Assembly: GCA_963828255.1 (NCBI GenBank)
Contig: CAWHDZ010000018.1
Location: 64,001 to 128,000, forward strand
Direction: 5' to 3'
Length of the DNA stretch: 64,000 bases
Source: an uncultured delta proteobacterium
GTDB taxonomy: Bacteria; Myxococcota; Myxococcia; Myxococcales; Anaeromyxobacteraceae
The translations under genes and the position numbers were made by a program. Below the pieces are notes generated by a model that saw only the letters and a program-made list of their open reading frames with translations, had not been told where the DNA came from and searched no databases. Of the stretch, positions 17,541 through 63,120 are shown one piece after another (within the stretch, counting starts at the first letter, position 1; every line of letters starts with the position of its first letter).

Positions 17541-17648
17541 CGCGACACCGATGTCGTGGTTCAGCCGGTTGAACCACTCCTTCGGGTGGGCGACCAAGGT
17601 CCCCGAGCCACCTTCGAAGCCGAGGTTGAATCACTTTCGGTATGGGTC
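17541..17648. repeat. Degenerate att-like copy 1
   Basis: 17541-17588 matches 39814-39861 at 43/48. 17600-17648 matches 62961-63009 at 37/49 ungapped, including a shared TCGGTATGGGTC. Confidence 0.75.
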
Positions 17649-18182
17649 ACTCATTGTCCCAGAGACAACGGCCGATTCCATCATCGGTCTACCCGTCGCG
17701 CGTGAAGGAGACCACGGCGGTATCGGTGATGACCATCCTCGGCCTCGACTCGCACGGCCGCGACCAACCAGGTCGCGTCGCTGGCCTGCCGTCGGGGCGA
17801 GTCACGCTCCCGGACAGCGCGGTCGTCAGCCTGGCGGCGACGCGAGCGTGCATTTTATTGCCTACATCGACCCACCCCCATGAGGGGCGCTGCAGGATTT
17901 GTGGCTCCATGCGTCAAGACGTGGGGATCCCGCCATTTTGGTCCCCACGTTCCTTACAGATGACTACACCTCGTTCGACCATCACCCCGACAGGCGACCC
18001 TCCAATGGGTCTACTGCGTACCTCGTTCATGGTACAGAAGCGTGCCTGATTCTGGATGGTCGGGAGGGATCAACAAGGTGGCAAGGAGCAAACATGAGAA
18101 CGACGAGACAGCGCCCACTCACCAGGAAGGCCTTCAGCAAGTCGACCGCCGGCCGCCTGGCCGTGACACGAAGGGTGGAGAC

Positions 18183-18404
18183 ATGAGCGGCATCCGGACG
18201 GGACGGTCGCGGGGCGAGAAGATGAGCCTGTACATCCCTGGCGAGGTCCTCGCGGACATCCGGGCAGAAGCCCGCCGGCAGCAGCGAAGCGTGTCCTGGC
18301 TGATCCGTCAGGCATGGCGGCTCGCGCGGAAAGGCATGGATGCCCTTCCGGCAGCGCAGGAATGGAACCCCGAAGAGGGCCCTGGCGCCCTGCCGAACTC
18401 CTAG
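18183..18404 (+). CDS. Small ribbon-helix-helix protein, Myxococcales MXAN_4361-like (TIGR04563-like)
   Basis: KMSLYIPGEVLADIRAEARRQQRSVSWLIRQAWRLAR; RBS GGAG. Confidence 0.8.
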   Translation: MSGIRTGRSRGEKMSLYIPGEVLADIRAEARRQQRSVSWLIRQAWRLARKGMDALPAAQEWNPEEGPGALPNS

Positions 18405-18450
18405 GGAGCAACAGCGGTGCGGCCCCAGGCCCGTGCTAACGTTTCCCTTC

Positions 18451-18924
18451 GTGCACTCCCGGGGCACAGGCGGACGCGACGACGCGGGGTCCTCGCCGAA
18501 GCGCACGGGCCTCGAGGCCCGGATCGCCGATGCCCTGGTGACACGCCTCGTCGAGTCGCGGTTCTCCGAGGCGCTCATGGAGCAGATCCTCCAGGCGCTC
18601 ACCGAGAGCCGCGACGTCGAGAAGCTGGTCGTCCACCTGCTCGAGCAGCCAGACGTGAGCGGCGCCGTCGATGCGCTGGTGGACCGGCAGCTCGGGCGGG
18701 TGATCGAGTCGCTGCGGGACAGCGAGGCACTCCGCGAGCTGGTGCGCGAGCAGGTCGACCTCTACCTGAGGCACCTCACCGAGAATCCGGAGGCCGTCCG
18801 GCAGCTCATCCAGGACCAGAGCCGCGGGATGGTCCGCGAGGTCCAGGCCACCCTGCGCGCCCGCGCGTACCTCGCCGACGACGCGGTCGACGCCTGGGTC
18901 CACCGCGTGCTGGGGCGACCGTGA
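18451..18924 (+). CDS. Hypothetical helical protein coupled to the RDD gene (start uncertain)
   Basis: Amphipathic helical sequence; stop overlaps the next GTG (GTGA). Confidence 0.7.
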   Translation: MHSRGTGGRDDAGSSPKRTGLEARIADALVTRLVESRFSEALMEQILQALTESRDVEKLVVHLLEQPDVSGAVDALVDRQLGRVIESLRDSEALRELVREQVDLYLRHLTENPEAVRQLIQDQSRGMVREVQATLRARAYLADDAVDAWVHRVLGRP

Positions 18925-19430
18925 CGCTGCGCTACGCCGGCCCGGTGAGTCGCGGGGGCGGCCGGGCCCTCGACATGGTCTCGCTCGCCGTCCTCGTCGC
19001 CGGTACGGGATGGCTCGCGCAGCAGTTCCTCGGGATCGACCCGGAACACTGTCCCCCTGCGACCGCGTGGTGGCACCTGCGGGCGCACCTGTGCGGCTTC
19101 ATGCCCTACGCCATCCCGGTGGCCGGGGTGGTCATCCCGCCCACGTACCGCATCCTCTTCTACGCCCTCGCCGGGCAGACTCCGGGCATGGCGGTGATGG
19201 GCCTGCGGCTGCGGCGGTCGGACGGCCGGAAGGTGGGCATCCGGCAGGCCGTGAAGCGCGTCCTGACCTTCTACGCCACGCTCGGCTTCGGTTCCTTCCT
19301 CATCCCCGTGACGGCGCGGCGGCGGGCGCTGCACGACATCGTGGCCGGGACGGTGGTCGTCTACGATTGGGGTGAACACGAGCTCGACTTCCGGCGCGCC
19401 CTGGAGCAGCTGCGGTCGACCGATCCGTGA
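18921..19430 (+). CDS. RDD family membrane protein
   Basis: YAGPVSR...LD, GQTPGMAVMGLRL, RRALHDIVAGTVVV. Confidence 0.88.
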   Translation: MTLRYAGPVSRGGGRALDMVSLAVLVAGTGWLAQQFLGIDPEHCPPATAWWHLRAHLCGFMPYAIPVAGVVIPPTYRILFYALAGQTPGMAVMGLRLRRSDGRKVGIRQAVKRVLTFYATLGFGSFLIPVTARRRALHDIVAGTVVVYDWGEHELDFRRALEQLRSTDP

Positions 19431-19443
19431 TCCGGCTGCCCGC

Positions 19444-20649
19444 TCACCCCTCGCTGGTCATGATGAACAAGGGCGTCATCTCGAAGCTCTTGTAGTGCGG
19501 CCGGTACCGGTCGGCGTTGTAGAACCGGTCGACGTTCACGACCTTCTTGGTGCTCGTCACGATGTCGAGCGGGATGTTGTCGTACCGGCCGTTCTTCAGC
19601 ACCACCAGGCGGCCGTGGATTCCGGCGAGCAGCAGGTCGAGCGCGAGGTTGCCGTAGGCCATCGGCACGATGGAGTCGACCGCGTCCGGATCGCCGCCGC
19701 GCACCAGGTAGCCCAGCTTCTGGTTGATGATGTGAACTTCCTTGCCCTTGTTGTGCTGCGCGGTGCGCTTCTGGATCTCGGCCGAGACCAGGTCCCCGAT
19801 GCCGCCGAGCTTGGCGTGGCCGAAGGCGTCGGTGGTGCTGCTCTGGAACACCATCTCGCCGCCCTCGTACATCGAGCCCTCCGAGACCAGGCAGATGGCG
19901 TACTTGCTGGGATTTCGGGCGCGGTCGTACATCAGCAGCTCGGCGAGCCGGTCCATGTCGAACTTGTACTCGGGGATCACGCAGCGGTTCGCGGCGCCCG
20001 CCATCGTGGGCAGCATCGCCGTGAAGCCCGCGTAGCGGCCGAACACCTCCAGCACGAGCAACCGCTCGTGGGATCCCGCCGACGTGCGCAGCCGGTTGGC
20101 CATCTCGATGGTGCGCGTGACGCAGGTGCTGAACCCGATGCAGTAGTCGGTCCCGGGAACGTCGTTGTCCATCGTCTTCGGGATCGCGATGACCTTGACG
20201 CCCTCCTTGTACAGGCGCACGCCGTAGCTGAGCGTGTCGTCGCCGCCGATCGGGATGAGGTAGTCGACACCGAGCCAGTCGAGGTTCTTGAGGACCTCCG
20301 GCGTCAGGTCGTTCGTCTTCCCCCTGTACCGATCCTTCAGGTGCTCGGGCACCCCATCGGCCTTCACCGCGCTGGGGCGGGTTCGCGACGTGTGCAGGAA
20401 CGTGCCGCCCGTGCGCCCGGCCCGGTTGACGATCTCCTCGGTCAGGTTCTGGAAGTTGTCGCTGTTGTCGTGATCGTGCTCGCGCACGATGTCGATCGCG
20501 CCCGCCCAGCCGCGTCTCAGCCCGATGACCTCCCAGCCCTCCCGCAACGCCCGGATCGTCACGGCGCGGATGGCCGGATTCAGGCCGGGCACGTCGCCGC
20601 CCCCGGTCAGGATGGCGATCCGCTTCTTGCCGGTGTTCACGTTGGCCAT
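19444..20649 (-). CDS. pfkA: 6-phosphofructokinase (PfkA family)
   Basis: ILTGGGDVPGLNPAIR, GGTFLHTSR, IGGDDT, PKTMDND, EVFGRYAGF, LGYLVRGG. Confidence 0.93.
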   Translation of the reverse strand: MANVNTGKKRIAILTGGGDVPGLNPAIRAVTIRALREGWEVIGLRRGWAGAIDIVREHDHDNSDNFQNLTEEIVNRAGRTGGTFLHTSRTRPSAVKADGVPEHLKDRYRGKTNDLTPEVLKNLDWLGVDYLIPIGGDDTLSYGVRLYKEGVKVIAIPKTMDNDVPGTDYCIGFSTCVTRTIEMANRLRTSAGSHERLLVLEVFGRYAGFTAMLPTMAGAANRCVIPEYKFDMDRLAELLMYDRARNPSKYAICLVSEGSMYEGGEMVFQSSTTDAFGHAKLGGIGDLVSAEIQKRTAQHNKGKEVHIINQKLGYLVRGGDPDAVDSIVPMAYGNLALDLLLAGIHGRLVVLKNGRYDNIPLDIVTSTKKVVNVDRFYNADRYRPHYKSFEMTPLFIMTSEG

Positions 20650-20929
20650 GATGGGTTCCTCCCGTCGGACCGGTCCAGCTTACTCCCAATGGCCCGACGG
20701 GGAGGGTTTCCGGCTCATCCTCGGCCCGTTCCTCCCTGGCGTCGGGGCGGTACGAGTTGACCATTCGTGAACCGACGCTCCCGAAGGGCAAGCAGCCGCC
20801 CCGGTCGGAATCTGCTCGGCGCGAGGGCGCGGGTGATCGGCTCGAAAGAGCGGGGTCGGATGCAAATTGGCCACGCAATGGCCAGGCGGCGTGGGCGCAG
20901 ATGGTTCTCCCCGGCCTGACGGAGGAAGG

Positions 20930-21060
20930 GACTCGAAGGACGCGAACGTGATTCCGGAGACGGTTCGACGGACCTCGCCGCACACCTCGATGATGTCCTC
21001 GGCGAAGAGGCGCCAGTCCTGCGTGACGAGGTCCACCTTCCGGCCCAGGAGGTCAGGCAC
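20930..21060 (-). pseudogene. Fused remnant of an MNT nucleotidyltransferase / HEPN (DUF86) toxin-antitoxin pair
   Basis: DLLGRKVDLVT (MNT C-terminal motif) joined in frame to QDWRLFAEDIIEVCGEVRRTVSGITFASF (DUF86 N-terminus). Confidence 0.7.
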
Positions 21061-21084
21061 CGTGGACGGGAAGCGTGCCGGCAT

Positions 21085-21588
21085 TCATCCCTCCCCAGAC
21101 GAGAAGCTGCCAGCGCCCGCCAGCACGAGGAACTGATCCTGCTGTCCGGGCGCGAAGAGGTACGCCGTCGCCGAGAGTTGCCAGAAGGAGACCCCGATCA
21201 GAGGGCCGCCCTGCACCTCGGTCGAGGCCTGGAAGGCCCGGGGCCGCTGCAACACCACTCCGACACGGAGCCATTCGGGCCCCGTGACGCTGAACTCGGT
21301 CCAGTCGTAGAAGAAGCCCTGGGACGAATCGGCCAGGTCGAACACGTACGCGCTCTGGGACCAGAGCGCGAGCGGGCCCCACTCGAGCGTGAAGGAAAGG
21401 TTCCAGCCGATCCAGGCCGATCCGGCATTGCGCGCCTCGTAGTCGTATCGCGCTCCCAGGTGAAGGGATCCACGGTCCACCGTCAGGGTCGGTTGCAGGT
21501 AGTCCCTCTCGTCGCGGAGGACGTACCACAGGACGGAGGGACCCCATTCCCAAGCAGGCGCGTCCGCCGAGTTCGCAAGACCCGTCAT
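21085..21588 (-). CDS. Outer-membrane beta-strand-rich hypothetical protein, probably truncated
   Basis: Alternating aromatic strands (LHLGARYDYE, FFYDWTEFSV); no clear signal peptide. Confidence 0.55.
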   Translation of the reverse strand: MTGLANSADAPAWEWGPSVLWYVLRDERDYLQPTLTVDRGSLHLGARYDYEARNAGSAWIGWNLSFTLEWGPLALWSQSAYVFDLADSSQGFFYDWTEFSVTGPEWLRVGVVLQRPRAFQASTEVQGGPLIGVSFWQLSATAYLFAPGQQDQFLVLAGAGSFSSGEG

Positions 21589-21620
21589 GCTGTCACGACG
21601 GCGAGCAGGACGTTCACACG

Positions 21621-21897
21621 ATGCTCGTCGCCGCCCTGACCTGCAACCTGGCCTGGGGCCTCGTCGATGGCGTCATGTACGTCCTCACCTCGGTCGCCGA
21701 ACGGGCGCGCCGGGTGGCCGTCTTGCTGGGGATCCGCGCCGCCGATCCAGTGGCGTGCTGGTGGTGCTCGCCACCCTCCCCCCGACCATTCCGTTCATGC
21801 TCGTCGCCGATGCCCAGCGTGCGCTCCGGATCTCCAACGGGGTGGCCGTGGCCAGCCTCTTCCTCGCGGGCTTCTGGCTGGGACGGGCCACCCGGTC
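21621..21897 (+). pseudogene. VIT1/CCC1-like membrane protein fragment
   Basis: ALTCNLAWGLVDGVMYV, then a frame change to ATLPPTIPFML...ALRISNGVAVASLFLAGF. Confidence 0.65.
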
Positions 21898-23224
21898 ACC
21901 AGTCGAAGAAGTAGGCGAGCCCCATCCCGACCTCGTACTTGTAGAACTGGGCCGCCGCCGCCTGCGTGAGCGTGGCCTGGTACCACGCGGAGATCGACAG
22001 GGATTTCTGACGGTCGACGAAGAAGCCCGCCATGCCCTTCATGAGGGGGATGAAGGTCCCGGTGGCGAAGTTCCATCCCAGCCGCGTGTCGAGCGCGACG
22101 AACGACCTGCCGGGGAGGTTGGCCACCAGGATGGGCTCCAGCACGAGCAGGTTCAGCTCCGGGTAGGTCTCGCTTCCGCCCAGGGAGCGAAACCACTGGA
22201 CCTGCGTCGTGATCGAGAACCACCGGGTCAGCGCGATCCCGATCGCGTAGGAGGGCACGAGCGCCCACGGGCCCCCGATGACGGGCGTGGAGGCCGTCTC
22301 GATCTGCAGCCCGAGCGCCAGGAACTGCCGGACGCCCTTGCCGCTCATGAAGTTCCAGGCGAAGGCCGTGGAGACGGCTCCCAGGCCGAACTGGGTCGGT
22401 GCGTCGGCCGCGTAGGGAAAGAGCGCGGTGACGGGGACCTTGAACTGGAGGGCGAACTCGCTCGAACTGCCGAAGACGAACTGCGGATTGAAGAGCATCC
22501 GGCCGGCGTTGCCCTTCCCGCCCAGCGACTGGAAGCTGTCCACCTGGAGGAGCACCTGGCTCCGGGAGAAGGCCACCGAGTCGAGCCCCTGGAGGATCTC
22601 GAGCGCCTCCCGGACCCGGTCCCGGCTCCCCATCTCCTCGACGGTCTCGGCGACCGCCGCTGCCTCGGCGACGACCTGGAAGTCGGTGGCCCTGCACTCC
22701 GGAGAGATGCGCGCCTCGTTGGCCTCGACGCACTCGAGTAGCGGGCCTGCCTGCTGCGGGACGTCGCTGCAGAGCCTCGCGAGGTCCTTCGTGCATGCAC
22801 TGCGGAAGGCCTCCAGCCGTTCGCGCGCCACCCCGATGCGTTCCACCTCCCCCTGGCAGGCGCGGGAGACCTCCAGCTGGTGCCGGCTCAGGCAGGCCAG
22901 CACCCTGCCCCCGCCCGGCTCCACGGCCGCGCAGTACTGGTCCAGGTCGGTCTTGCACGCCTGGAGGAAGTCCCGGACGAACCTCCTCGCAGACACATCG
23001 TCGGCCTCGAGCTTGGCCCGGCAGGCCTCCCCGAGAGCGTCCTGGTTCGCCTTGAGACACTTCCGCACGGCCCCCTTGCCGAGACCGAAGCCGGGGCAGA
23101 GGCGAACGATGTCGTCCATGCAAGGATCCGCGGCCATGGCCGGGGAGGCGAAGGCGGCGAGCAGGAGGACGGCGGCTGCGGCGGCGCGAACTCCGGCGCG
23201 CCCGGGGAATCGAGTCTCCTTCAC
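21896..23224 (-). CDS. Secreted protein: three Cys-rich (GLG1/Cys_rich_FGFR-like) repeats plus a C-terminal beta-barrel-like domain
   Basis: Signal peptide; CxxDxxxxC...CL......S..C repeats; amphipathic strands ending YEVGMGLAYFFDW. Confidence 0.75.
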   Translation of the reverse strand: MKETRFPGRAGVRAAAAAVLLLAAFASPAMAADPCMDDIVRLCPGFGLGKGAVRKCLKANQDALGEACRAKLEADDVSARRFVRDFLQACKTDLDQYCAAVEPGGGRVLACLSRHQLEVSRACQGEVERIGVARERLEAFRSACTKDLARLCSDVPQQAGPLLECVEANEARISPECRATDFQVVAEAAAVAETVEEMGSRDRVREALEILQGLDSVAFSRSQVLLQVDSFQSLGGKGNAGRMLFNPQFVFGSSSEFALQFKVPVTALFPYAADAPTQFGLGAVSTAFAWNFMSGKGVRQFLALGLQIETASTPVIGGPWALVPSYAIGIALTRWFSITTQVQWFRSLGGSETYPELNLLVLEPILVANLPGRSFVALDTRLGWNFATGTFIPLMKGMAGFFVDRQKSLSISAWYQATLTQAAAAQFYKYEVGMGLAYFFDW

Positions 23225-24658: not shown

Positions 24659-24681
24659 CGGGAGAACTCCCTTCGCCGGAT

Positions 24682-26430: not shown

Positions 26431-26432
26431 CG

Positions 26433-27464: not shown

Positions 27465-27491
27465 GGTTTCTCCTGGTGTGGATGGTGTTGA

Positions 27492-31617: not shown

Positions 31618-31619
31618 GC

Positions 31620-34412
<2,793 letters not shown>

Positions 34413-39612: not shown

Positions 39613-39746
39613 CACCGACGTCGGAACACCTTCGCGTCTCAACGGGTCATGCACGGGGGCTTGATCGAGAAGCTGAAGGAAATCCTTGGGCACGACTCGG
39701 TGGTCATGACCGATCGATGCGCCCACCTCCGACCCGACCTCTGGGG
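39613..39746 (+). pseudogene. Tyrosine recombinase/integrase C-terminal remnant
   Basis: HRRRNTFAS..VMHGG.I.KLKEILGHDSVVMTDRCAHL resembles HxLRHTFAS...LGHxxxxMTxRYAH; the catalytic Tyr position reads TGC (Cys). Confidence 0.85.
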
Positions 39747-39813
39747 CGTGATCGCGGGAAGGCACATCCCCCGACCTATTTCGCGGACGGATCGGTATTC
39801 AACCCACGTGAAA

Positions 39814-39898
39814 CGCGACATCCGTGTCGTGGTTCAACCAGTTGAACCACTCCTTCGGGTGACAAGTATGAATGCCGGAGCCGCCCTGCAAGCCGGGT
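39814..39898. repeat. att-like copy 2 (rnpB-like 3' fragment plus palindromic arm)
   Basis: 39871-39898 matches 62959-62986 at 27/28; palindrome GTGGTTCAAC-CA-GTTGAACCAC at 39829-39850. Confidence 0.85.
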
Positions 39899-40455
39899 CG
39901 GTAGTTCACGGTCCGTCAGGGTGCTCCCTGCGTGGCCAGGACACGACAATCCACGGGTTTAGGGAGACCCTGTCGGACCCCGAGTGTCCCGGGTGGACAG
40001 AGTTATGCCACCCATATGCCACCCAACTTCCCGGGCGCGTCAGTCCAGATCATCGCCCCGGGTTCAGGCCGGCGGTACTTGTGCCAATGCGAGACGCACT
40101 GGCAGCAGCCGTGGGACTCGACGAACCTGATGACGATCCGAAGGTCGCTGTCGTCGAGCCGACGGTGCTCCTTGAGGGCCCAGAACTTCACGCGCCGAAC
40201 CCATCGGGATCGAACCCGAACGGCCTGACGGCGGTTCTCGGCGCGGGGCATCGACAAGCACTCCACGCCGGGCGCGGCCACCTCGCGACGGAAGCGGGCG
40301 CGGGGAGCATGTGGGTCCCAGGGTTCACGGGAGCGACGACGGCTTCAGCCTCGTCAGACCCAGCACCTGCAAGAGGGAATGGAACTGCTCCCGATGGGCT
40401 TCGTGCGCCGAAGCATGCTGCACTGCGGGGACCCGGCGGCGAAATGTGCCCGACG

Positions 40456-43950: not shown

Positions 43951-44790
43951 TCACCACGCGATGGCGATGCCACCCGGCGCGGGGAGGAGATCACCGGCCT
44001 GGGGCGGACCCTTCCTGCCCGGGCGGTGAAAGAGGTAGGGCACCGCCCAGCCGATGAGGCTGCCCACTCCCGCACCGACCAGGGTGTCGGACAGGTAGTG
44101 CTTGCCCGCGGCCATCCGCAGGTAGGCGGTGAACGATGCCGCCGCAAGACCGACGCCGAGCACCCAGGGTGCGCCCGGCATGTCCTGCATGAAGAAGAGC
44201 GTGCTTCCAGACACCACCACGGCGAAGACGAACGTGGTGTGACCGCCGAAGAACGAGACGTTCGCGTCGGAGGTGGTCGCTGGATAGAGGTCCAGGGTTC
44301 CCTGCCAGACGTAGGGACGGGCCCGGCCCACCGAGTACTTCACGATCACGTTCACGAGCATCGCCAGGCTCGTGGCCTCGGTGATGAGCAGCACGCTGGA
44401 CCAGGCCGCAGCCGGATCGTCATGCAGGTAACCCTGGAGGAGCCCGAAGCCCATGACTCCCACCGGAATGGCGAACTGCATGACGTTCGAGACCGTGTTC
44501 GCAGCCGTGGGATTCGACCAGAGAACGGACCGGGAGATGTCGCCGTCGATGGGACCGGGCTCGCACCACTTGCAGTCGAGCGGGGCCAACTGGTTGTTCA
44601 GCAGGAGCAGCGTGAGCGTGCTCACGGCTAGGCCGCCGGTGACGATGCCGTCGACGGTCCAGTCGTAGGAGAGCTTGGTGAGCTCCTGCGAGGACGCCGG
44701 CGTGGGGGCCTCAGGGGAGGCATCCGAGGCCTGGACGCTGGTCGCTGCCAGGCAAGAAGCAAGGAGGGCGGCACCGAGCACGGGGCGCAT
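43951..44790 (-). CDS. PAP2 family phosphatase
   Basis: KYSVGRARP, SFFGGH, LRMAAGKHYLSD. Confidence 0.9.
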   Translation of the reverse strand: MRPVLGAALLASCLAATSVQASDASPEAPTPASSQELTKLSYDWTVDGIVTGGLAVSTLTLLLLNNQLAPLDCKWCEPGPIDGDISRSVLWSNPTAANTVSNVMQFAIPVGVMGFGLLQGYLHDDPAAAWSSVLLITEATSLAMLVNVIVKYSVGRARPYVWQGTLDLYPATTSDANVSFFGGHTTFVFAVVVSGSTLFFMQDMPGAPWVLGVGLAAASFTAYLRMAAGKHYLSDTLVGAGVGSLIGWAVPYLFHRPGRKGPPQAGDLLPAPGGIAIAW

Positions 44791-44823: not shown

Positions 44824-45633
44824 GTGCATGTGCAGGGACTGCGCGCCATCGCCTTGGTACTCCTTGTCGCCAACGCATCCTCCGCCCGAGGGGCAGAGGC
44901 GCCGATCCCCCTCCAGTACAACCTCGCGCTCGACCTCTCGATCACGGGCGCGATGGGGGCCTCGATCATCCTGCTCACGATCTACCAGCCCGAACTCCTG
45001 CCCGAGACCTGCCGCTGGTGCACCCCTCCGGGCATCGACGTGGCAGCACGACACGCACTGGTCTGGAGGGGCGCGGAGCGCACGGCGGACGTACTATCCA
45101 CGGTCATCGACGCGGTGATTCCAGCCTCCGCCGCGACCTATTTGCTTCTCTCGGCGAATGGCGCAGGCGACGTCAATGCCGGCCTCGTCGACTGCTTGCT
45201 CGTGACGGAGGCTGCCGCTGCGGCCCTGCTGCTGAACCAGGTCGTGAAGCTGCTCGTCGGCCGCAAGCGGCCCCACGTGTACTTCAAGAACGAGCTCGGC
45301 TATGCGGCGAGCGAGGACAACCTCTCCTTCTACGGTGGCCATACCTCGTTCGCGTTCTCGGTCGCCGCCGCCACGGTCACGGTGGCGGCGATGCGTGGAT
45401 ACGCAGGCGTCGGGATCGTCGCAGGCGTCGGGTTCACTTTGTCGGCCGCCGTCGGCTACCTCCGCATCGCGGCGGACCAGCACTATCTGACCGACATCCT
45501 CATCGGGTCAGCCGTGGGGAGCCTCATCGGGTGGGCGATCCCCCGAATCTTCCACTCACCGGTTCCGGGAAACCCGACGACGCCGGGGGCAGGAATGCGG
45601 ATGCCTCCAGTCGGGCTCACGCTGGTCTTCTGA
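44824..45633 (+). CDS. PAP2 family phosphatase
   Basis: KLLVGRKRP, SFYGGH, LRIAADQHYLTD. Confidence 0.9.
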   Translation: MHVQGLRAIALVLLVANASSARGAEAPIPLQYNLALDLSITGAMGASIILLTIYQPELLPETCRWCTPPGIDVAARHALVWRGAERTADVLSTVIDAVIPASAATYLLLSANGAGDVNAGLVDCLLVTEAAAAALLLNQVVKLLVGRKRPHVYFKNELGYAASEDNLSFYGGHTSFAFSVAAATVTVAAMRGYAGVGIVAGVGFTLSAAVGYLRIAADQHYLTDILIGSAVGSLIGWAIPRIFHSPVPGNPTTPGAGMRMPPVGLTLVF

Positions 45634-48705: not shown

Positions 48706-48758
48706 TGCAAGCCGGCCGGTGGTGCGACTGCTCCGAATGCTGTCGAACCATCCCAGTT

Positions 48759-50351: not shown

Positions 50352-50400
50352 CCGGGGTGTTCCGCACTTGGCCGAGCGTGGTGAATCTGCCATGTTTATC

Positions 50401-50414
50401 GTTGCAAGTGCAAC
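50401..50414. promoter_or_regulatory. Palindromic operator GTTGCA-AG-TGCAAC (candidate MarR site)
   Basis: Lies in the 65-bp divergent GH15/otsA gap; second copy at 53941-53954. Confidence 0.6.
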
Positions 50415-50416
50415 TC

Positions 50417-52670
50417 ATGCGATTCGCGCTCCGATTCGTCATCCCCCTGCTCGTCCTCCTCGCGGTCGTCGCGCTGGGGGCATCGGCGTTCATGAGCGCG
50501 CAGGCGCATCGCTGGGCGGAGCGGGATCTCACCATGCGGGCCCAGGTCATCCTGGCCGGCGCAAGGGAAGGACTGACCGATCGCCTTGGCCGCAACGAAC
50601 GCTCCCGGGCAGTGGCTCTCCTCGAGGAACTCGTGCGCGACGAGCGTCTCCTGGGAGCCGCGATCTGCGCCACCGGAGAGCACCCGACCAGGTCGACCAC
50701 GGCCTTCCCGAAGGACTTGAAGTGCGACTCCGTGGTTCCGGGCAGCAGCACGTCCGGCAGCTCGGGTGTGTTCCGCCTGGTCGGCGGCACCGTTCACATG
50801 AGCGTGCTGCCCATCGTCGACGACGCCGGCGCGACCATCGGCAGGCTGGCCCTGGTCCACGACATGAGTTACGTGGATCGACGCGCCTCGGAAACGCGGA
50901 CGGCGACCTTCCTCGTGTTCGCGGTGGTCGGCCTCCTGGCCGCTGGCGCGACGATTCTCGCCTCTCGGTTTTCCTGGGTATCCTGGAGCAACGAACTCCG
51001 CCGGCACCTGGCCGCCCCGTTTCGGTCGGGCCAGGGCCCCTCCTCCGCGCCACAGCGAGCCTTCCTTCCCGTCCTCTCCGACGTCCGGGAACTGGTGCAA
51101 CGATTGACGTCGGAGGAGTCAAGCGCTGCCGGCGGACGGTGGACCCCCGAGCGGCTTCGCGGGGTTCTTCGCTCCCGCCTCCACGGTGAGGGCGTCGTGG
51201 TCGTGGCGAACCGAGAACCCTACATTCACGAGCGGATGCCGGACCGGTCGGTCCGCGTGGTCTACCCCGCCAGCGGCCTCGTCACGGCGATGGAACCGGT
51301 CATGCGGGCGTGCTCGGGCACTTGGATCGCCCACGGCAGTGGCTCGGCCGACCACGACACCGTGGATGCCCACGACCGCGTCCGTGTTCCTCCCGGGGAC
51401 GAGGCCTACAACCTGCGCCGACTGTGGCTCACCGAGGCCGAGGAGCGAGGCTACTACTACGGCTTCGCGAACGAGGGACTCTGGCCCCTCTGCCACATCG
51501 CGCACGCGCGCCCGGAGTTCCGCTCCGAGGACTTCGAGCAGTACCAGCGCGTCAATCTCCGGTTCGCCAGGGCCGTGGTCGAGGAGGCGACGGTCCCGGA
51601 CCCGATCGTCCTCGTGCAGGACTACCACTTCGCCCTGCTCCCCAGGATGCTCCGGGAGTTGCTCCCCCGGGCGACGATCATCACGTTCTGGCACATTCCG
51701 TGGCCGAACGCGGAGCGGTACGGCATCTGCCCCTGGGCGCGCGAGCTCATGGAGGGACTTGCTCGGGTCGAGCATCCTCGGCTTCCACACCCAGGCCCAC
51801 TGCAACAACTTCATGGAAAGCGCGGACCGTTACCTCGAGGCTCGCATCGATCGGGAAAGCCAGGCAGTGGTAATGGGCGGCCGGGAGACACTCGTTCGCC
51901 CCTACCCGATCTCCATCGAGTGGCCGAATCACTGGGCCGCCGGGGCTCCCTCCGTCGGCGAGTGCCGGCGAAAGGTCCGCGAGGATCTCGGCTTGCCCCC
52001 AGACTGCCTGCTCGGTGTCGGTGTCGATCGTCTCGACTACACGAAAGGCATCCTGGAACGCTTCCTGGCAGTGGAGCGGCTGCTCGAGCGATTCCCCCAG
52101 TATCGGGGACGATTCTTCTTCCTCCAGGCCGCCGCGCCCAGCCGTACCGTGATCGAGACCTACCGCAGGCTCGGCGAGGACGTGGACCTCCTGGCGACGC
52201 GGATCAACGAGCGGTTCGGATTCGGGGGGCCGGGGCCGATCGTCCTGCACCACCAGCACACGGAGCCCGGGGCGATCATGGAAGCGTACCGTGCCGCAGA
52301 CCTCTGCTACGTCTCCAGTCTCCACGACGGCATGAACCTCGTCGCGAAGGAATTCGTGAGCGCCAGAGACGACCTCCGCGGCGTGCTCGTCCTGAGTCGA
52401 TTCACCGGCGCTGGACGGGAACTGACCGAGGCGCTCGTGGTGAATCCCTATGACCTGAACGAGGCATCGAACGCGATGGCGGCGGCCTTGAGCATGCCGG
52501 GGGACGAGCAGGAGCACCGGATGCGCGCCCTCCGCAGCATGGTTTCGGAGTTCAACGTTTACAGATGGGCGGGGCGAATGCTGCTCGACGCAACCCGGGT
52601 TCGAGAGCATGACCGCCTGTCGCTACGCCTGGCGGACGCTCGCCGTGCCGGGAGCGCGACCCTTCCGTGA
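50417..52670 (+). pseudogene. otsA: Trehalose-6-phosphate synthase with an N-terminal membrane domain; one frameshift at ~51759
   Basis: VANREPY, SGLVTA, YYGFANEGLWPLCH, VQDYH, FWHIPWP; then in the next frame VDRLDYTKG, SSLHDGMNLVAKE. Confidence 0.88.
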
Positions 52671-53889: not shown

Positions 53890-53989
53890 CGCTTTCGCGT
53901 GCTCCTTGCGCGACGAGATGCCTCGGCCCAGGCTTCATTTATTGCATCTGCAACTAAAAAGCTCCGCTCCACGATCTGCTGCTCCTTCC

Positions 53990-55741: not shown

Positions 55742-55878
55742 ACCGCGAAGGAGGCGATCGCCGTTCCGTTTCTGTCTGCTGGCAGCGGTGTCGGTCATTG
55801 TGGTTCGACATCCAATGCCGCGGATGCGGAAACATTTCCATGTCAAATCGACCCGTTGACCGGCCCCTCCTGATGCAC

Positions 55879-56409: not shown

Positions 56410-56599
56410 GGCCGTGCATCCCCTTCCGCGCGCCGGCGCCGTCCACCAGGGTCTGCCCAGAAACCTGGCGGATGGCCTCCCGCATCGTCACGCTTCCGTC
56501 TCGGGAATACGACCCATGGATGGAGGTCTGCGATCAGGCCCTCCCCGGGCGAAATGGCTTCCCGTCGGGCGGCTCGCACCCGATGCAGCGACCCCGCGA

Positions 56600-57261
56600 G
56601 TTCGTGGGGGGATCGTCAACGGGTCACCATTCTCGAGACGTCTGATCTCCTGTCCCACGTCGGCGACGAAGCCCTCCGGGCCGAGCCAGGAACGGGCGGG
56701 GGTCACGAACCCGACAATGACTCCCGCGATGGTCGGATGAACTCCCGCTGCGTAAATCCCGCCCCAGACCACGGCGGCAGGGACGGCGTAGACGAACCTG
56801 GAGCGGACGCCGAGCCACTGGAGCGCAAAGATGCAGGCCAGGCCTGCGACCGCGACGAGCAGCGCGGCAGGAACGACCCCCGCCGAGTAGAAGACGGCGA
56901 GCGCGAGCAGGAGGTAGGTTCAGGCGGGAACGACCATCCCGGCGAGGGCCGCGAGGATGGGGAGGGCCGCCCGCCTGGCATCGGAGAGTTCTCCGTGGTG
57001 AATCTCCCGCCGGATCTCCAGACCGACGACGAAGAAGAACACCACCATCAGGACGTCGTTGACGAACCACTCCACGGGCCGCTCGAAGGCGAATGAGCCG
57101 ATGCGGAGTCCGACAGGGGTATGCCAGAAGGAGGCGTATGCGCCGGCCCAGGGCGAGTTCGCCCACCCGAGCGCCACGGCAGCGGCGGCAAGCAAGACGA
57201 TTCCGCTCGCCGCCTCGATCCGCAGGAACTGCTCGAGCGGACGCCCAGCGAATCGCGCCAT
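56600..57261 (-). pseudogene. nhaA: Na+/H+ antiporter NhaA fragments
   Basis: EAASGIVLL, WANSP, FVNDVLMVVFFFVVGLEIRRE, AALAGMVVPA*, later GVHPTIAGV; central and C-terminal parts missing. Confidence 0.85.
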
Positions 57262-57609
57262 CCGCACGAGCGGGCCCCAGGCCCCGGGGGGATCGCTGGG
57301 CGCGCATTCGGACGCTCTTGCTCCGTGGAGTGCAAAGTCCATCCCCGCCGGCGTCATCGCCGACCGGGATGGCGGCCCGCCCATCCAAGTTCCTGCAGCG
57401 GAGGTCCCGCCGCACCCTTTGAATCTGTGAGGAAGCACGATGCCACGGCGCCATGGCCCCGTCGAGCGGCCGGTGTCAGGGGCTTCCACGTCCACGCCCG
57501 CCGTCCTGCTTCGAGGTTCGAAGGGTCTACCTCGCGATCCGGGATCAGTCGGAGGGACTGGCAGTCGGGTTTGCCCTGGGAGCGTTTGGCGGCTTGCGCC
57601 CCGGTGAGG

Positions 57610-58539
57610 CATTCGGTCCTCGAGCAGGGCGTTGGGGTAGTTCTGCGGGAGCGTGGTCGGGTCGCCAGGCCGGGCGCGGAAGTGCTCGAACTCGCCGGTG
57701 TCGGGATGGTAGCGCTCCAGCCCCTCGCCCGAGGTCCCCATCCAGACGTTGCCCCTTCGATCCTCCAGCACCTGCACCACACCGTCGCGGATGACGCTCT
57801 TCGGGTCGAGCGGGTTGTGCCGGAACACCTCGAAGCGGTGGCCCTCGGGGTCGTGCTTGTCGACGCGGCCGCTCGTGTACCAGACCCACAGCCGGCCGTC
57901 CCGGAGCCGGACCATCTGGCGGATGTCGAACCTCGGCAGGCCGTGCTGCATGGTTCCCACCCAGATGCTGCCCCGGCGATAGGCGAGGACCGCCCGGATG
58001 TCGTTGCTGGGCAGGCTCCCGGCGTCGTCCGGCCGGTGGAAGTGGCTGGCAAACCGTCCGGTCTTCCGGTCGTAGCTGGAGAGCCCCTCCGAGGTGCCAA
58101 ACCAGAACAGGCCGTCCTCGTCCTCGGCGATGGTGGTGGAGTAGTGGCTGAATCCGTTCCCGGCCAGGCTCGTGGCCGGTTCCGCTGGATTCTTGAAGAA
58201 GGACACGAAGCTGTCGTCACGCTTGTCGTAGCGGGTGAGGCCACGGTTCGTGCCCACCCAGATCATGCCCTGGCTGTCCTCGAAGACCTGGGTGACGTTG
58301 TCGGTGGCCAGCGCTCGAGGTCCGGCCCGGAAGTACTTCACGCCGCTGCCGTCGAAGCGCGCCAGGCCGTTGAACGCGGTCGTGAACCACAGGAACCCCT
58401 GCCGGTCCTGGATGGCGTTGTGCCAGGGCGTTCCGCCGACGTTGAACGCGAGCTCGAACTTGAGATCTCCGGGGCCGCCGGCGAAGGCGTCGCACGGCAT
58501 CCAGAGCAGCAAGGCCAGCCAGCACACCAGCGGCCGCAT
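57610..58539 (-). pseudogene. Two-component regulator beta-propeller (Reg_prop) N-terminal fragment
   Basis: Repeats QDRQGFLWF, EDSQGMIWVGT, EDEDGLFWFGT, EDRRGNVWMGT; no signalling domain follows. Confidence 0.8.
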
Positions 58540-59048
58540 CCGGAACCCTGGCAGGCCGGGGCTCATGAGGAAAGGCGCCCCCCGGACGGCGGATCGGGAC
58601 GCGGAAGGCCCGCGCGGACGCCGTCACACGCCTCGCGTGTCATTTCATCCCTCCCCGCCGCGGCATTGCCCACATCGGCCATCCGAGTCACGGCCGGTGG
58701 GGCGCCCCAAAGGGGTTCGTCCCCGGGTGCGGAGGGACGAGGGGCCGGCAGGCCACGCGTGATGCACCGCGAAAGCGCGGGGCCGCCACGAACATGCCAC
58801 CGATCGCCAACCGGAGAAGCAACCTCGACTCGATGGTTCCCGACATGACGGCGTCGAGTTCTTCGGGGTTTGGGCCATGACCTCGCGCCGACCGAAGGCG
58901 GCGCCGCGAGCAGGCGAAACGTGGCGCTTGCCGGACCCACGGCTTGCCACGCCGCCGATGGAAAAGGGTTCGGCAAACGATTCGGTGGCCGGAAACCGTC
59001 TAGTCTCGGTGGAGAACGTCCACTGCCAGCTGGAACGGGGTGCAACCC

Positions 59049-60389
59049 ATGAATAGGTTCAGGCGGTTCTGGGACTATCTGAGGTCGAGCTTCTGGTTCG
59101 TTCCCTCGCTGATGGTCGGCGGCAGCATCGTCCTCGCGGCCGGGTTGATCGAGCTGGACACGGCCCGGAGCCACGAGTGGTTCGCCCAGTGGCCGCGCCT
59201 CTTCGGGGCTGGGGCGGAAGGCGCACGCGGGATGATGTCGACGATCGCCACCTCGATGATGACCGTGGTGGGCGTCACGTTCTCCATGATCCTGGTGGTG
59301 CTGGCGCTGGCGTCGAGCCAATACACGTCGCGGGTCCTGAGAAACTTCATTCGCAGCCGCGTCACGCAGTTCGTACTCGGGACCTTCGCCGGCATCTTCA
59401 CGTATTGTCTGATCGTGCTGCGAAGCATTCGCGGGAACGAAGCGGGTGCCTTCGTTCCCGCCCTGGCGGTGTTCTTCGGCTTCGTGCTGGCGCTGGCCGG
59501 CGTGAGCGCGCTCATCTTCTTCATTCACCACGTCGCGACCTCGATCCAGGCCTCGAGCATCATCGCCACTGTTGCCGACGAGACCATGTTGGCCATTGAC
59601 CGACTCCTTCCAGGAGGACATGGGCAAGGGCCGACCGACGACGATGAGCAATCCGCGACCCTTGCTCGGCCGGGGCGGAACTGGCAGTCGGTCCCCGCCA
59701 GGGAGAGTGGCTACATCCAGAACGTGGATGGCGAGGCGCTTCTACGTCTTGCGAGGAAGCACAGGACCACCGTGCGCATGGAACGGGGCATCGGTGAATT
59801 CGTGGTCGACCAAACCCCCCTCGTCTCGCTCGATCGGGAAGGTCCGCCGGACGGTGAGATCATCGGCGCACTGCAATCGGCCTACAGCATCGACCGCCGT
59901 CGCACGCTGGAACAGGATGTTGCATTCGGGATCAGGCAAATCGTGGACATCGCGTTGCGCGCGCTGTCTCCGAGCACCAACGACACCACGACCGCCGTGA
60001 TGTGCTTGGACCATCTGACGGCCATCCTGTCCCGCGTGGCGTCCCGACGAATACCTCCGTCGCATCGCTACGAGGACGGCGACCTGCGGGTGATCACCAT
60101 CGGGCCGACCTTCGCCACGTTGCTGGAGGAATCGTTCGATCAAATTCGAGGCAGCGCCGTCGGAAACGTCGGCGTCCTGCTACGGATGCTCGTCGCGCTT
60201 CAAACCATCGCCAGTCTCACGGCTAGCCCGAGTCGGCGGCGGTCGCTTCGTGAACAGGTGGAATGGATCGCCGAGTCGGCCGAGCGCACCGTCGAGTCCT
60301 TGCACGATCGTTCGAGGATCGACGTGCGGCTGAAGAGCGTGCGTGAAGCGCTCGAAGGGGAGCCGGCGTCTCATGAAATCGGCCCATGA
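59049..60389 (+). CDS. DUF2254 family membrane protein
   Basis: SFWFVP, ASSQYTSR, FIHH, SGYIQ, RQIVDIALRALSPSTNDTTTA. Confidence 0.9.
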   Translation: MNRFRRFWDYLRSSFWFVPSLMVGGSIVLAAGLIELDTARSHEWFAQWPRLFGAGAEGARGMMSTIATSMMTVVGVTFSMILVVLALASSQYTSRVLRNFIRSRVTQFVLGTFAGIFTYCLIVLRSIRGNEAGAFVPALAVFFGFVLALAGVSALIFFIHHVATSIQASSIIATVADETMLAIDRLLPGGHGQGPTDDDEQSATLARPGRNWQSVPARESGYIQNVDGEALLRLARKHRTTVRMERGIGEFVVDQTPLVSLDREGPPDGEIIGALQSAYSIDRRRTLEQDVAFGIRQIVDIALRALSPSTNDTTTAVMCLDHLTAILSRVASRRIPPSHRYEDGDLRVITIGPTFATLLEESFDQIRGSAVGNVGVLLRMLVALQTIASLTASPSRRRSLREQVEWIAESAERTVESLHDRSRIDVRLKSVREALEGEPASHEIGP

Positions 60390-60444
60390 TCCCGAGGGCG
60401 TACCGTTCCTCGAAAGGACGAGAAGCCGGAGAAGACGCCGAGCC

Positions 60445-60670
60445 TCACTTCGTGTGGTCGGCGTGGCACATGCGGCACTCCATGTGCCCCTGCTGGTGGT
60501 TCATGCCCTCCTTCGTCTGCCACATGTCGTCCGGCCCGTGGCATCGGACGCAGTGCTCGATCTCCGCCGAGGGCTTCCGGACCGGTGGCGACCACTTGCC
60601 GTCGAAGTACTCGTTCATCGCGAGCGTCACCGTGTAGACGACCTCGCCCGTCACCTTGGCGCACCGGCGG
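60445..60670 (-). pseudogene. C-terminal di-haem fragment (resembles C-GCAxxG-C-C / split-Soret-like proteins)
   Basis: RCAKVTG...LAMNEYF...CVRCH...GHMECRMCH (two CxxCH). Confidence 0.6.
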
Positions 60671-60987
60671 ATCGACGGCTTGCTCGACGACGACGGCAAC
60701 TTCACGCGGGAGTGCGACAACCTGCTTCAGGTCGCCTGGTTGGCCGCTACGTCGCTCGACCCGGCCGACCGGCTCGCGTCGGCCATCGACGTCGACACCT
60801 GGCTCGCCTTCAACATCTCCGAGGGGTGCCTGGCGCCCACCCGGCCAGTCGTGGCGGCTGGCGTGGGAGCATCGGGCTGAGGCCCCACTGTCGTTGAAGG
60901 GATTCCGATGCGAGCGGGATCGAAGCTGACGGCGGTGGACTTGTTCTGCGCTGACGCCGGCTTGGCCATGGTTCCCGGTCGATGAGC

Positions 60988-61015
60988 TTGCAAGATATAA
61001 TGATATAGTTATATA
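60988..61015 (+). promoter_or_regulatory. Sigma70-like promoter overlapped by an ArsR-type operator
   Basis: TTGCAA at 60988; inverted repeat ATATAA-N8-TTATAT at 60995-61014; strongly AT-rich. Confidence 0.65.
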
Positions 61016-61023
61016 CGCACGTC

Positions 61024-61830
61024 ATGGACGCCCCGGACGCTGCCTCATCCCCTCTTGCCCCCCATCCCGCGGCCCCGCGCCCGGCGAGGATGTGGCTGGG
61101 CCTCATGCTTCTCGCCGTCGTCGGCGTGGTCGGCTCCTCGCCGTTCTTCGCGAAGGTCCTCCCCGGGATGATCGGTGCGCGCGCTGTCGCGATCCCCCTG
61201 ACCCCGGTGCAGTTGGTTGCCGTTCAGGGCCTCCAAAGCCTGGTTCTCTCCGCGCTTGCCGCGGTCGCGGGTCTGTGGGCGAGCCGCTGGACGGGCCTCG
61301 ACGCTCCGCTGGTGCGGGCGCGCCTCTCGGGTCGGCCGGTGGGCCGCCGCCTTCTCGGACTGATGCCGGTCGCGCTCGTCGCTGGCACGATCTCCTCCCT
61401 CGCGGTCGTCGGGCTCTCTCTGGCCGCGGGCTCCCGCATCCCGGCGGGCGGGAAGCTCCCACCCATGAGCCCGTGGATCGCCGCGACCGGCGCATTCTAC
61501 GGCGGCATCATCGAGGAGTTGCTCCTGCGATGGGGGCTGCTCGGGCTGCTGGCGATGCTCCTCGTCCGCGTCGGGCTGCGGAATGGCTTGGCCTTCTGGA
61601 TCGCGAACATCGGCGCGGCCCTGATCTTCGGGGTCGGCCACCTGCCAGCCGCGAAGGCGCTTGGGATGACGCTCACCCCGTTCGTCATCTCCTACCTGCT
61701 CGTGGCGAATGGCCTCGTGGGTGTGGTCTGCGGGTGGCTATTCCGGAAGCGGGGCCTGGAGTCGGCGATGATGGCCCACGGCACCGCCGACATCTGGCTG
61801 CACGTGGCAGCGCCGTTCTTCGGGGCGTGA
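61024..61830 (+). CDS. CPBP (CAAX/Abi) intramembrane protease
   Basis: GIIEELLLRWG, FGVGH, GLESAMMAH. Confidence 0.9.
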   Translation: MDAPDAASSPLAPHPAAPRPARMWLGLMLLAVVGVVGSSPFFAKVLPGMIGARAVAIPLTPVQLVAVQGLQSLVLSALAAVAGLWASRWTGLDAPLVRARLSGRPVGRRLLGLMPVALVAGTISSLAVVGLSLAAGSRIPAGGKLPPMSPWIAATGAFYGGIIEELLLRWGLLGLLAMLLVRVGLRNGLAFWIANIGAALIFGVGHLPAAKALGMTLTPFVISYLLVANGLVGVVCGWLFRKRGLESAMMAHGTADIWLHVAAPFFGA

Positions 61831-61834
61831 GCGG

Positions 61835-62104
61835 ATGAGCGACCCCGCCTTCAAGGCGCTGGCCGACCCGACCCGACGGGAGATACTCCGTTTGCTTGGA
61901 GCGAGCGAGATGTCGGTGAACGACATCGTCGAGCGTTTCTCGGTCTCGCAGCCCGCCATCTCCCGGCACCTCGCCGTGCTCCGGCACGCGGGGTTGGTCA
62001 CCTCCAGGCGCGAAGGGCAAAGCGTGATCTACGCCCTCGACACCACGGTGATGCAGGACGTGGTGAGGGCCCTGCTGGACCTCCGAGGAGGAACGAAGCG
62101 ATGA
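61835..62104 (+). CDS. ArsR family repressor, SdpR-like
   Basis: FKALADPTRREIL, SQPAISRHLAVL, REGQSVIYALDTTV. Confidence 0.92.
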   Translation: MSDPAFKALADPTRREILRLLGASEMSVNDIVERFSVSQPAISRHLAVLRHAGLVTSRREGQSVIYALDTTVMQDVVRALLDLRGGTKR

Positions 62105-62814
62105 CTCGATACGGCCGATTGCTTCCAGGAGTTGCGCTTCTCGCGGACGTGATCGCCTCGGTGGTGCTCTATCCGAATCTCCCCGCAACCGTGCCCGTGC
62201 ACTGGAACCTCCTGGGCCAGCCGAACGGCTACGGGAGCCGCCTTCAACTCGTGCTAGGTGGCCCCCTGCTCGTCGCTGCCATCTGGCTGCTCCTGGTATG
62301 GCTTTCCCGTCTCGATCCTCGCCGAGTGCGGGGGCCGGCGGTGGAGGCCGGGGAGCACTCACACGATGACCAGGACGGCTCGTACTGGACCGTGATCCAG
62401 ACCGTGGTCGCGCTGCTGGCGGTGCTCCACGTCGCTGTGCTGCTCGTCGCCGCGGGGCTCCTGCAAGGAATCAATCGGATCGCCGCGCTCTGCCTGGCGC
62501 TACTCCTCATCCTGCCCGGGAACTTCATCGGTCGCGTCCGGCCCAACTGGTTCGTCGGAGTCCGGACGCCTTGGACGCTTGCGTCCGACACGGTGTGGCG
62601 GAGGACGCACCGGCTGGCCGCCCGGATGATGGTCGGCGGTGGTCTCGTACTGCTGCCGCTCGCGCTCCTCCTTCCTCCCGCGGGCGCCCTCGTTGCGGCG
62701 CTGGTCATCTTTGGTGTCGCCGTGCTCGGCCCCACGGTGTGGAGCTACTTCGCGTGGAGGCAGGAGCAAAGAGCCCGGCTCTCGGGTGATTCCCGGGGGA
62801 ACCGGCCTGGATGA
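62101..62814 (+). CDS. SdpI family immunity protein (DUF1648 + SdpI)
   Basis: LPATVPVHWN..GQPNG, PNWFVGVRTPWTL....W.RTHR. Confidence 0.9.
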   Translation: MTRYGRLLPGVALLADVIASVVLYPNLPATVPVHWNLLGQPNGYGSRLQLVLGGPLLVAAIWLLLVWLSRLDPRRVRGPAVEAGEHSHDDQDGSYWTVIQTVVALLAVLHVAVLLVAAGLLQGINRIAALCLALLLILPGNFIGRVRPNWFVGVRTPWTLASDTVWRRTHRLAARMMVGGGLVLLPLALLLPPAGALVAALVIFGVAVLGPTVWSYFAWRQEQRARLSGDSRGNRPG

Positions 62815-62958
62815 CGAGCTCGGCGACCCTGTCTGGGAGGGGAGAAGCTGGCAGTCCGGCCCTCGACGTCACGTGCGACGTCGTTCCCGTGCGGGTTGGG
62901 CAGTCGTTGGGCAGGGCCGAGCGGACCCTGGGGCCTAAGTAGTCGAAGTCAGGACAAA

Positions 62959-62988
62959 AATGCCGGAGCCGCCCTGTAAGCCGGGTTC
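62959..62988 (-). repeat. att-like copy 3: RNase P RNA 3'-end fragment (not a full gene)
   Basis: Minus strand GAACCCGGCTTACAGGGCGGCTCCGGCATT matches the conserved 3' P4 strand followed by a plausible P1 strand; upstream bases are not rnpB-like. Confidence 0.75.
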
Positions 62989-63100
62989 GAAACGCTGTCG
63001 GTATGGGTCGCGATCCCGAGCGACTGGGCGCGACAAGGGGGCGGAAGTACTCGAGGCAGCGCGACCGGCGGCGACGGGGCGTGCCACCGGAGCGACACCG

Positions 63101-63120
63101 TAAGTCAGATTAAGTCAGAA
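63101..63120. repeat. 10-bp tandem repeat TAAGTCAGAT/TAAGTCAGAA (candidate integrase arm sites)
   Basis: Related GAAGTCAGGA at 62945 on the other side of the core. Confidence 0.55.

Follow-up and report, generated by a model that had tools for sequence, protein, structure and literature searches.

How did three copies of the end of one structural RNA gene come to lie in a single orientation, about 22 and 23 kb apart, in a 64-kb stretch of myxobacterial DNA that holds no tRNA or tmRNA gene? The stretch (hereafter the window, 64,000 nucleotides in all) is C18:64001-128000 of the 4.3-Mb, 40-contig assembly of an uncultured member of the Anaeromyxobacteraceae, whose contamination is put at 6.6%; genomes, contigs and loci are given below by G, C and L numbers. 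A sequence-only reading of the window had placed the repeat at 62959-62988, 39871-39898 (27/28 identical to the first) and, eroded, at 17600-17648 (37/49), had taken it for the 3' end of rnpB, the gene for RNase P RNA, and had predicted an intact rnpB on the minus strand to the right of 64000. These positions and counts were reproduced, and the gene is where it was expected: a full type A rnpB (RF00010, 283 bits, 1-367 of 367) occupies the minus strand at 64701-65095 when the window's numbering is continued, 701 bases beyond its edge, with dnaG, rpoD, a zinc-ribbon gene, an RNase H gene and a PIN pair ahead of it, and its last 28-29 nt match the two better copies at 29/29 and 28/29 positions. 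Tyrosine integrases that act at the 3' ends of tRNA genes recombine in a core that rebuilds the gene and displaces its old end. Very probably the same has happened here at a different gene: one clade of lambda-type tyrosine integrases, found on phages and small islands of Myxococcota, would use the last ~28 bp of rnpB as its bacterial attachment site (attB), and the window would hold a decayed tandem stack of their insertions.

The repeat is specific to the gene. A 25-nt core, which we take to be the 3' strands of helices P4 and P1 of the RNA, occurs at 25/25 or 24/25 only in the assembly's two rnpB genes and in the two better copies; no other match in the genome exceeds 21/25, so that the repeat is not a dispersed one. 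The eroded copy at 17600 (core 18/25, adjoining arm 19/24) is the top non-self match genome-wide to the junction at 62961-63009, the next best, at 31, being the rnpB genes themselves; a profile of 11 junctions recovers it at E=1.8e-6, and it resembles a less eroded junction in the relative G006 on both sides. Among 29 non-gene copies the identity block runs with sharp edges from core position 1 to 28: differences occur in 22 and 21 of the 29 at the two positions before it and in 21 at the position after, and in at most seven inside. All 10 pairs of helix P1 with the host's 5' strand are kept in 48 of 49 junctions, the eroded copy keeping eight. The core also holds two CCGG half-sites 14 bp apart, and eight of the 12 internal substitutions in displaced copies fall at core positions 8-15 (host-polymorphic position 14 left out; nominal p 0.014), a post hoc clustering among related genomes that gives a weak hint of a crossover or overlap region there. 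As a separate observation, L199 (G079) and L198 (G106) show genome-specific base changes in the rnpB end that are common to the gene and one or both displaced copies, and these could help to map the crossover or reveal gene conversion.

The copies might also be the host's own work, as tandem 3'-end repeats or small rnpB duplications made by host recombination, with the integrases as passengers, much like the repeats that follow rnpB in Escherichia coli. Such an origin would suit a window that has no intact integrase and in which a dispersed repeat, H, lies beside two of the copies. It is hard to square with 29 copies whose two ends fall almost on the same bases, and with the few arm families, unrelated to rnpB, that precede the copies and are common to several genomes.

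The relatives show what belongs beside these copies. A full-length integrase open reading frame (ORF), convergent with rnpB, abuts the 3' end of the gene at 6 of 29 relative loci and a C-terminal remnant at 2 of 29, with further remnants visible in longer stretches of the loci. The three relatives' integrases that were tested match PF00589 at 60.7, 51.5 and 56 bits (cut-off 27.1), and the best PDB matches are phage integrase structures (5c6k and, from HP1, 1aih). From the catalytic set R...HxxR...H/W...Y, both arginines, the second histidine and the tyrosine are present and the histidine of HxxR is changed to Q, E or W; the N-terminal arm-binding domain PF14657 stays below its cut-off in two of the three. 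Replacement of that histidine (by Q, E, W and others, after a conserved tyrosine) is seen in much of the family, tRNA-targeting members included. We built a tree of 60 rows (83 loci less six duplicates and 24 with fewer than 270 aligned residues, plus seven from genomes); the 24 short rows left out comprise seven at rnpB, 12 beside tRNA genes and five with neither. One branch (bootstrap 100; SH-like approximate likelihood-ratio test, SH-aLRT, 99) sets apart 26 rows, 16 of which adjoin rnpB, eight a copy of its end, and two, assigned to the clade after the quick tree was known, are cut by contig ends just behind the gene. Outside this clade none of 34 rows lies at rnpB and 23 are neighbours of tRNA genes (for Leu, Arg, Lys, Val, Asn, Ser or Met). 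The closest clade members are labelled Anaeromyxobacter, Anaeromyxobacteraceae, Myxococcales and related groups. With midpoint rooting, which makes the distant tRNA-Met rows the deepest split, a single switch from tRNA to rnpB is the simplest reading. This association of clade and site in relatives and phages bears out the proposal of an element family with a ribozyme-gene target, and it again speaks against duplication by the host.

Phages supply what appears to be the free form of the site. Four IMG/VR records match the rnpB-end pattern, once each and always less than 6 kb from a clade integrase. Among the phages, G110 measures 39,586 bp, has direct repeats at its termini and encodes terminase, portal, major head and ejection proteins. 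Its one copy follows the integrase gene at a distance of ~80 bp and is flanked on either side by a direct-repeat pair, and the locus examined contains no rnpB upstream of this core; to judge from its sequence, it is a phage that carries the rnpB end as a free phage attachment site (attP). Duplication by host recombination is largely refuted by these phages, in which the rnpB end lies next to a clade integrase and the examined locus lacks a full rnpB; such duplication is left with next to no probability. GenBank phages yielded only distant integrases (25-28%) among the matches listed, with one further record in the 60-80% band. In two phage attP forms the integrase stop codon lies inside the core. 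More generally, 11 of the 22 members scored (e.g. L036, L043, L056 and L087) have an integrase frame that enters the core or crosses it, so that in nine of these 11 the C-terminal tail would change on integration; the gene ends short of the core in the remaining 11. Phage G110 also encodes a DNA methyltransferase and a queuine tRNA-ribosyltransferase-like protein (L158:1805-2542), enzymes whose presence suggests DNA base modification.

Displaced rnpB ends and whole islands are widespread in the family. We found rnpB, which is ~95% identical across the genus, in 37 of 41 genomes searched; one of the 19 rows of our local rnpB profile (L028) is on the wrong strand and adds noise, full genes still scoring below 1e-80. 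The rnpB-end pattern matches 82 of 92 family genomes, with two matches for the reversed control, and at least two copies occur in 28 of 91 other family genomes, a count that may include second rnpB genes or chance matches with two mismatches. All 23 pairs of neighbouring copies on one contig share their orientation, at spacings of 0.75-18 kb (median 3.1 kb). In G017 a complete island of 9.4 kb runs from rnpB through an integrase, an excisionase-like gene, a DNA polymerase B-like gene and other cargo to a core. One direct-repeat pair recurs in both arms of this island; such matching pairs in both arms of G017 and of phage G110 are putative arm-type integrase sites. The gene that follows the far core of G017 (DUF1428) lies ~200 bp behind rnpB in G066, a member of another genus (78% over 380 nt), which makes G066 a near-empty site for a clade element across genera. 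Next to the excisionase, the G017 island encodes a 758-aa protein with a weak match to organellar or viral DNA polymerase B (L159:3632-5905), and the island is possibly a self-replicating integrative element.

From these data the following course of events can be proposed. Each element's attP would hold a copy of the rnpB end just downstream of a convergent integrase gene. Recombination of attP with attB within the core would then join the 5' part of the host gene to the tail copy of the element, giving a complete rnpB, and would shift the former tail to the element's far end, so the newest element would sit next to rnpB and the order of events would be read from there. Because the site is regenerated and the subtypes differ in arm-site sequence, new elements would land between rnpB and the older ones. 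The subtypes do carry different arm repeats, and if these repeats work as arm sites, the differences may let several subtypes share one site and may leave orphaned units stuck without an integrase of their own type. Later deletions would have taken all integrases and some cores, leaving an immobile or helper-dependent pile of cargo. We infer the recombination itself from the repeats, gene, arms and remnants, from the tie between clade and site and from the phages in attP form.

Read leftwards from rnpB, the stack in the window consists of three core-bounded units of 1.7, 23 and 22 kb, together 47 kb (Table 1). Their G+C contents (0.666, 0.673 and 0.678 for units 1, 2 and 3) lie below the 0.718 found left of 17600 and the 0.714 of the genome, and coverage by called genes, from the codon-model calls made in this analysis, falls from 0.88 left of 17600 to 0.84 in unit 3 and to 0.55 in unit 2. 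The leftmost copy, which had been said to mark the switch from intact genes to pseudogene-rich DNA, does coincide with a step in G+C (0.718 to 0.678), but pseudogene-rich DNA begins only in unit 2. Likewise the spacing of ~22 and ~23 kb holds, but the blocks are not single elements; with pieces of three integrase subtypes, they are the accreted remains of several. The three inner junctions each keep the end of a different relative's element. On the rnpB side a 50-nt stretch, half of it core, matches the G010 type at 88%; at copy 1 the arm is of G017 type, and its repeat pair (62896-62914) is found at both ends of the G017 island; at copy 2 there is a remnant of G006 type, confirming the integrase remnant that had been noticed beside the middle copy (39625-39744, 77% over 40 aa to a relative's integrase, catalytic tyrosine changed to cysteine). 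On the other side of copy 1, the arm is 82-87% identical over ~165 nt to junctions in G005, G006, G009, G010 and G011; its 9-nt repeats are two exact copies, 10 apart, placed like the repeat pairs of the complete island and the phage attP, and the number of such repeats in the window is not above chance. Because the junction ends and the pieces within unit 2 come from three integrase subtypes, this genome would have undergone at least three integration events and probably more, so that the three successive integrations at rnpB suggested from the sequence stand as a minimum. Apart from this, a single change in the copy at 39871 removes a stop codon that lies in the core, in the frame of the integrase remnant.

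Table 1. Features of the rnpB-associated stack, in window coordinates (those beyond 64000 continue the same numbering)
Feature	Position	Strand	Basis or remark
Repeat H, second copy	17540-17588	-	ahead of small Cys-rich gene (17247-17450), at the return to host-like DNA
Eroded outermost junction: P arm and damaged rnpB 3' end	17600-17648	-	37/49 vs 62961-63009
Unit 3 (22 kb), largely intact accessory genes	17649-39870	.	
3' remnant of G006-type integrase gene, pointing at copy 2	39616-39744	+	82% DNA identity over 127 nt
Repeat H (~50 nt, multi-hairpin), copy by copy 2	39812-39862	-	
Displaced rnpB 3' end, copy 2	39871-39899	-	28/29 vs rnpB
Unit 2 (23 kb), decayed accessory DNA	39900-62957	.	
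Internal fragment of G010-type integrase gene	57513-57616	+	96% over 104 nt
Internal fragment of G010-type integrase gene	60353-60413	+	85% over 61 nt
P' arm of G017-type element, rest of integrase deleted	62875-62957	-	80% over 115 nt to end of intact G017 island
Displaced rnpB 3' end, copy 1	62958-62986	-	29/29 vs rnpB
P arm (element end) upstream of displaced core, copy 1	62986-63119	-	common to many relatives
Unit 1 (1.7 kb), integrase-less cassette	62987-64697 (rnpB end)	.	runs past window edge
Pair of 9-nt direct repeats, putative arm-type integrase sites of P arm	63101-63119	-	predicted
DUF6933 gene, unit 1	63188-63847	-	ORF and domain scan
Putative antitoxin ORF, unit 1	63834-64202	-	no Pfam match; predicted
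BrnT toxin gene, unit 1	64093-64416	-	

The second rnpB allele of the assembly (C17:202520-202914, against C18:128701-129095) raises the question whether the long array is partly an assembly chimera, in which strain variants were joined via the repeat or the arms. Contig C17 repeats the 8 kb upstream of rnpB at 99.6% identity, which stops just behind the core; beyond that point comes another arm, with the C-terminal end (97 aa) of an integrase of G010 type (90%) and with genes that resemble part of unit 2 at 88%. Given the 8-kb flank and the contamination of 6.6%, C17 would most simply derive from a co-assembled sister strain, and this contamination and the two alleles on two contigs are what a chimera would draw on. 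The repeat is shorter than 30 nt, though, every junction has different flanks, and arrays of like layout lie on single contigs in many relatives, the one-contig genome G042 among them; we consider a chimera improbable. Within the gene the two alleles are set apart by six substitutions, five of which fall together in a single stem region.

Several observations weigh against integration at rnpB as an account of this stack. The assembly contains no intact clade integrase anywhere, only remnants, and the intact gene that had been expected beside rnpB is absent from this genome; nor did any of the 89 window ORFs scanned match an excisionase. Because both are missing, nothing in the window speaks for mobility of its units. 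Several integrase fragments that were too short for the tree (L142, L147, L152, L155 and L156) score 61-90% to clade members and adjoin tRNA genes. The outermost copy retains only 18 of the 25 core bases, and the count of multi-copy genomes is a loose one. Among 13 genomes of the genus none offers an empty site for the window's own array, and rnpB directly beside the zinc-finger and RIO genes, which had been anticipated for relatives, was found in none of them: the nearest of the small Cys-rich, RIO and GSDH genes is 6-26 kb from rnpB where they share a contig, in varying order. Relatives show a shuffling of the genes left of 17600, and genes like those of unit 3 occur outside core-bounded DNA in G001, in G006 and elsewhere in the same genome, for which reasons the outer boundary is less clean than that of a classical island. 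Contigs from four public DNA runs showed no core joint among the joints listed for 60001-67000 (window numbering); being patchy and from other strains, they are uninformative on excision.

Of particular interest for the present state of the stack is its newest unit, which lies next to rnpB, measures only 1.7 kb and consists of a BrnT toxin-antitoxin cassette and a DUF6933 gene. Integrase-less units of this kind could be cassettes with both arms that are moved in trans by the clade integrase of a phage or neighbour, in an array akin to those of cis-mobilizable elements or integrons; this reading would refine integration at rnpB rather than replace it. The BrnT cassette is 97% and 98% identical to those of G009 and G011, whose dnaG-rpoD regions are only 84% and 85% identical; the BrnT part forms a core-to-core unit of 0.9-1.2 kb in G009, G005 and G003; the 23 neighbouring copy pairs have the short median spacing given above; and arm repeats are kept at both ends of unit 1. 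Homologous recombination anchored in the well-conserved rnpB and in shared arms would, on the other hand, explain the same transfer. In addition the array copy in G006 and G010 is 87-90% identical, not above the backbone (89% and 96%), close relatives of the cassette genes also occur on contigs without a match to the core pattern, and the remains of integrases in units 2 and 3 show decay to be common. We therefore regard movement in trans as possible but rather doubtful. A still more tentative extension is that a single switch from tRNA genes to the conserved P4/P1 tail founded the clade, whose subtypes have one core in common and differ in their arm sites, and made rnpB a renewable platform. 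On it, small units without an integrase, with toxin-antitoxin or other cargo, would be actively inserted, excised and traded between species by integrases taken from temperate phages, and some integrases would also swap their C-terminal tails when they insert. In G003 this cassette ends in a core; the corresponding place near 63750 reaches only about 13/25 by hand count, and no lost core is claimed there.

The older units carry diverse accessory genes. Unit 2 holds SdpI/ArsR/Rce1, DUF2254, MOSC, OmpA, MarR, trehalose, CLC and PAP2 genes, and unit 3 a two-component system, GH63, AI-2E, SulP, DUF2252, PFK and RDD genes. In unit 2, otsA is split over two frames (50357-52670), two divergent PAP2 genes form a 110-nt inverted repeat (44019-44128 and 45453-45562), and an RNA of the nhaA-I riboswitch class (42 bits; 57367-57417, minus strand) lies stranded in an ORF (56920-58566) that is a junk fusion: the truncated start of a sensor kinase, a fragment of an integrase and ~100 codons from the beginning of nhaA. 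Repeat H consists of three short hairpins and has seven near-full copies in the genome, also on C31, C26, C17, C19 and C11, some of them just after stop codons. It is found close behind rnpB-end copies in G002, G006, G009, G010 and G011, and a partial H precedes the same Cys-rich gene in G001. We tried H as an element arm and dropped the idea, as it also follows ordinary genes on other contigs. Rfam has no family for it, and its folding is not consistently better than that of shuffled sequences (z -0.84 and -2.39); it may be a REP-like (repetitive extragenic palindromic) element or a small RNA motif.

No report of rnpB as an attachment site was found in the literature searched, in which broad surveys were covered in part and the TIGER tables may record rnpB targets, so that its absence from print is not established. 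PMC2516327, PMC2885270, PMC5771137, PMC2818188, PMC8776855, PMC4256840, PMC2705793, PMC2864759 and PMC7002104 mention rnpB or RNase P in unrelated contexts, and both terms are absent from PMC9934374 and PMC12884075. With the elements described here, the gene for RNase P RNA joins the few housekeeping-RNA genes that serve as landing sites. They also provide named enzymes for experiment: one island is intact, one phage is complete, and the clade lies nested among relatives that target tRNA genes, which allows a change of target to be studied. For myxobacterial genetics, a universally present and self-restoring site such as rnpB would be an attractive neutral place for integration.

The tRNA and tmRNA islands defined by Islander (PMC4383910) share with the rnpB stack the tyrosine integrase, the restoration of the target by the element, a displaced 3' fragment in the same orientation at the far end, and tandem arrays. 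They differ in their targets, as here the gene is rnpB and the window has no tRNA or tmRNA gene. Point by point, the target is restored here (full-length RF00010 match; complete P1 pairing in all but one junction), the displaced fragment keeps its orientation here and in all 23 pairs from relatives, and an intact integrase of its own accompanies the island in relatives and is lacking in this genome. Islander considers only tRNA and tmRNA genes and requires an integrase per island (PMC4383910), for which reasons it would miss the rnpB stack; finders keyed on these genes in general miss rnpB sites, and about a third of the family genomes searched have further copies of the rnpB end. In the TIGER/Islander resource the classes of site are tRNA/tmRNA, coding and intergenic, and rnpB is not named (PMC12424338). 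Enterococcus phage phiEf11 integrates into the 3' part of ffs, the gene for the 4.5S RNA of the signal recognition particle, with a 27-nt core close behind its integrase and with partial restoration, 12 of the last 17 nt being changed, as tested experimentally; the non-coding targets listed with it are tRNA/tmRNA and csRNA genes (PMC12540744). Both phiEf11 and the rnpB elements thus use an essential housekeeping RNA gene other than a tRNA gene, in different phyla. Phage phiEf11 alters the end of ffs, whereas the rnpB elements, known from sequence alone, keep the P1 helix fully.

Further parallels concern the units and the integrase gene. In Firmicutes, cis-mobilizable elements (CIMEs), recombinase-less units bounded by attachment sites, are stacked beside ICEs (integrative and conjugative elements) and IMEs (integrative and mobilizable elements). 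Unit 1 resembles a CIME in that it has no recombinase and is bounded by attachment sites of a related autonomous element, but the putative helpers here are phages and small islands, and no conjugation module was found among the window ORFs scanned. An integron is not a good model, since the array has no intact recombinase and its units end in a gene-end copy and arms; for H, a role like that of attC is an unlikely fit, as H is dispersed and is missing from two of the four junctions. Myxococcus phage Mx8 reportedly has its attP within the int gene and targets a tRNA gene, and the clade integrases whose frame enters or crosses the core recall this arrangement. Seen against these systems, integration at rnpB would be the usual 3'-end integration known from tRNA genes, with only the target gene changed. 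Its chemistry holds nothing new, and the window shows a decayed example, with intact ones in relatives and phages.

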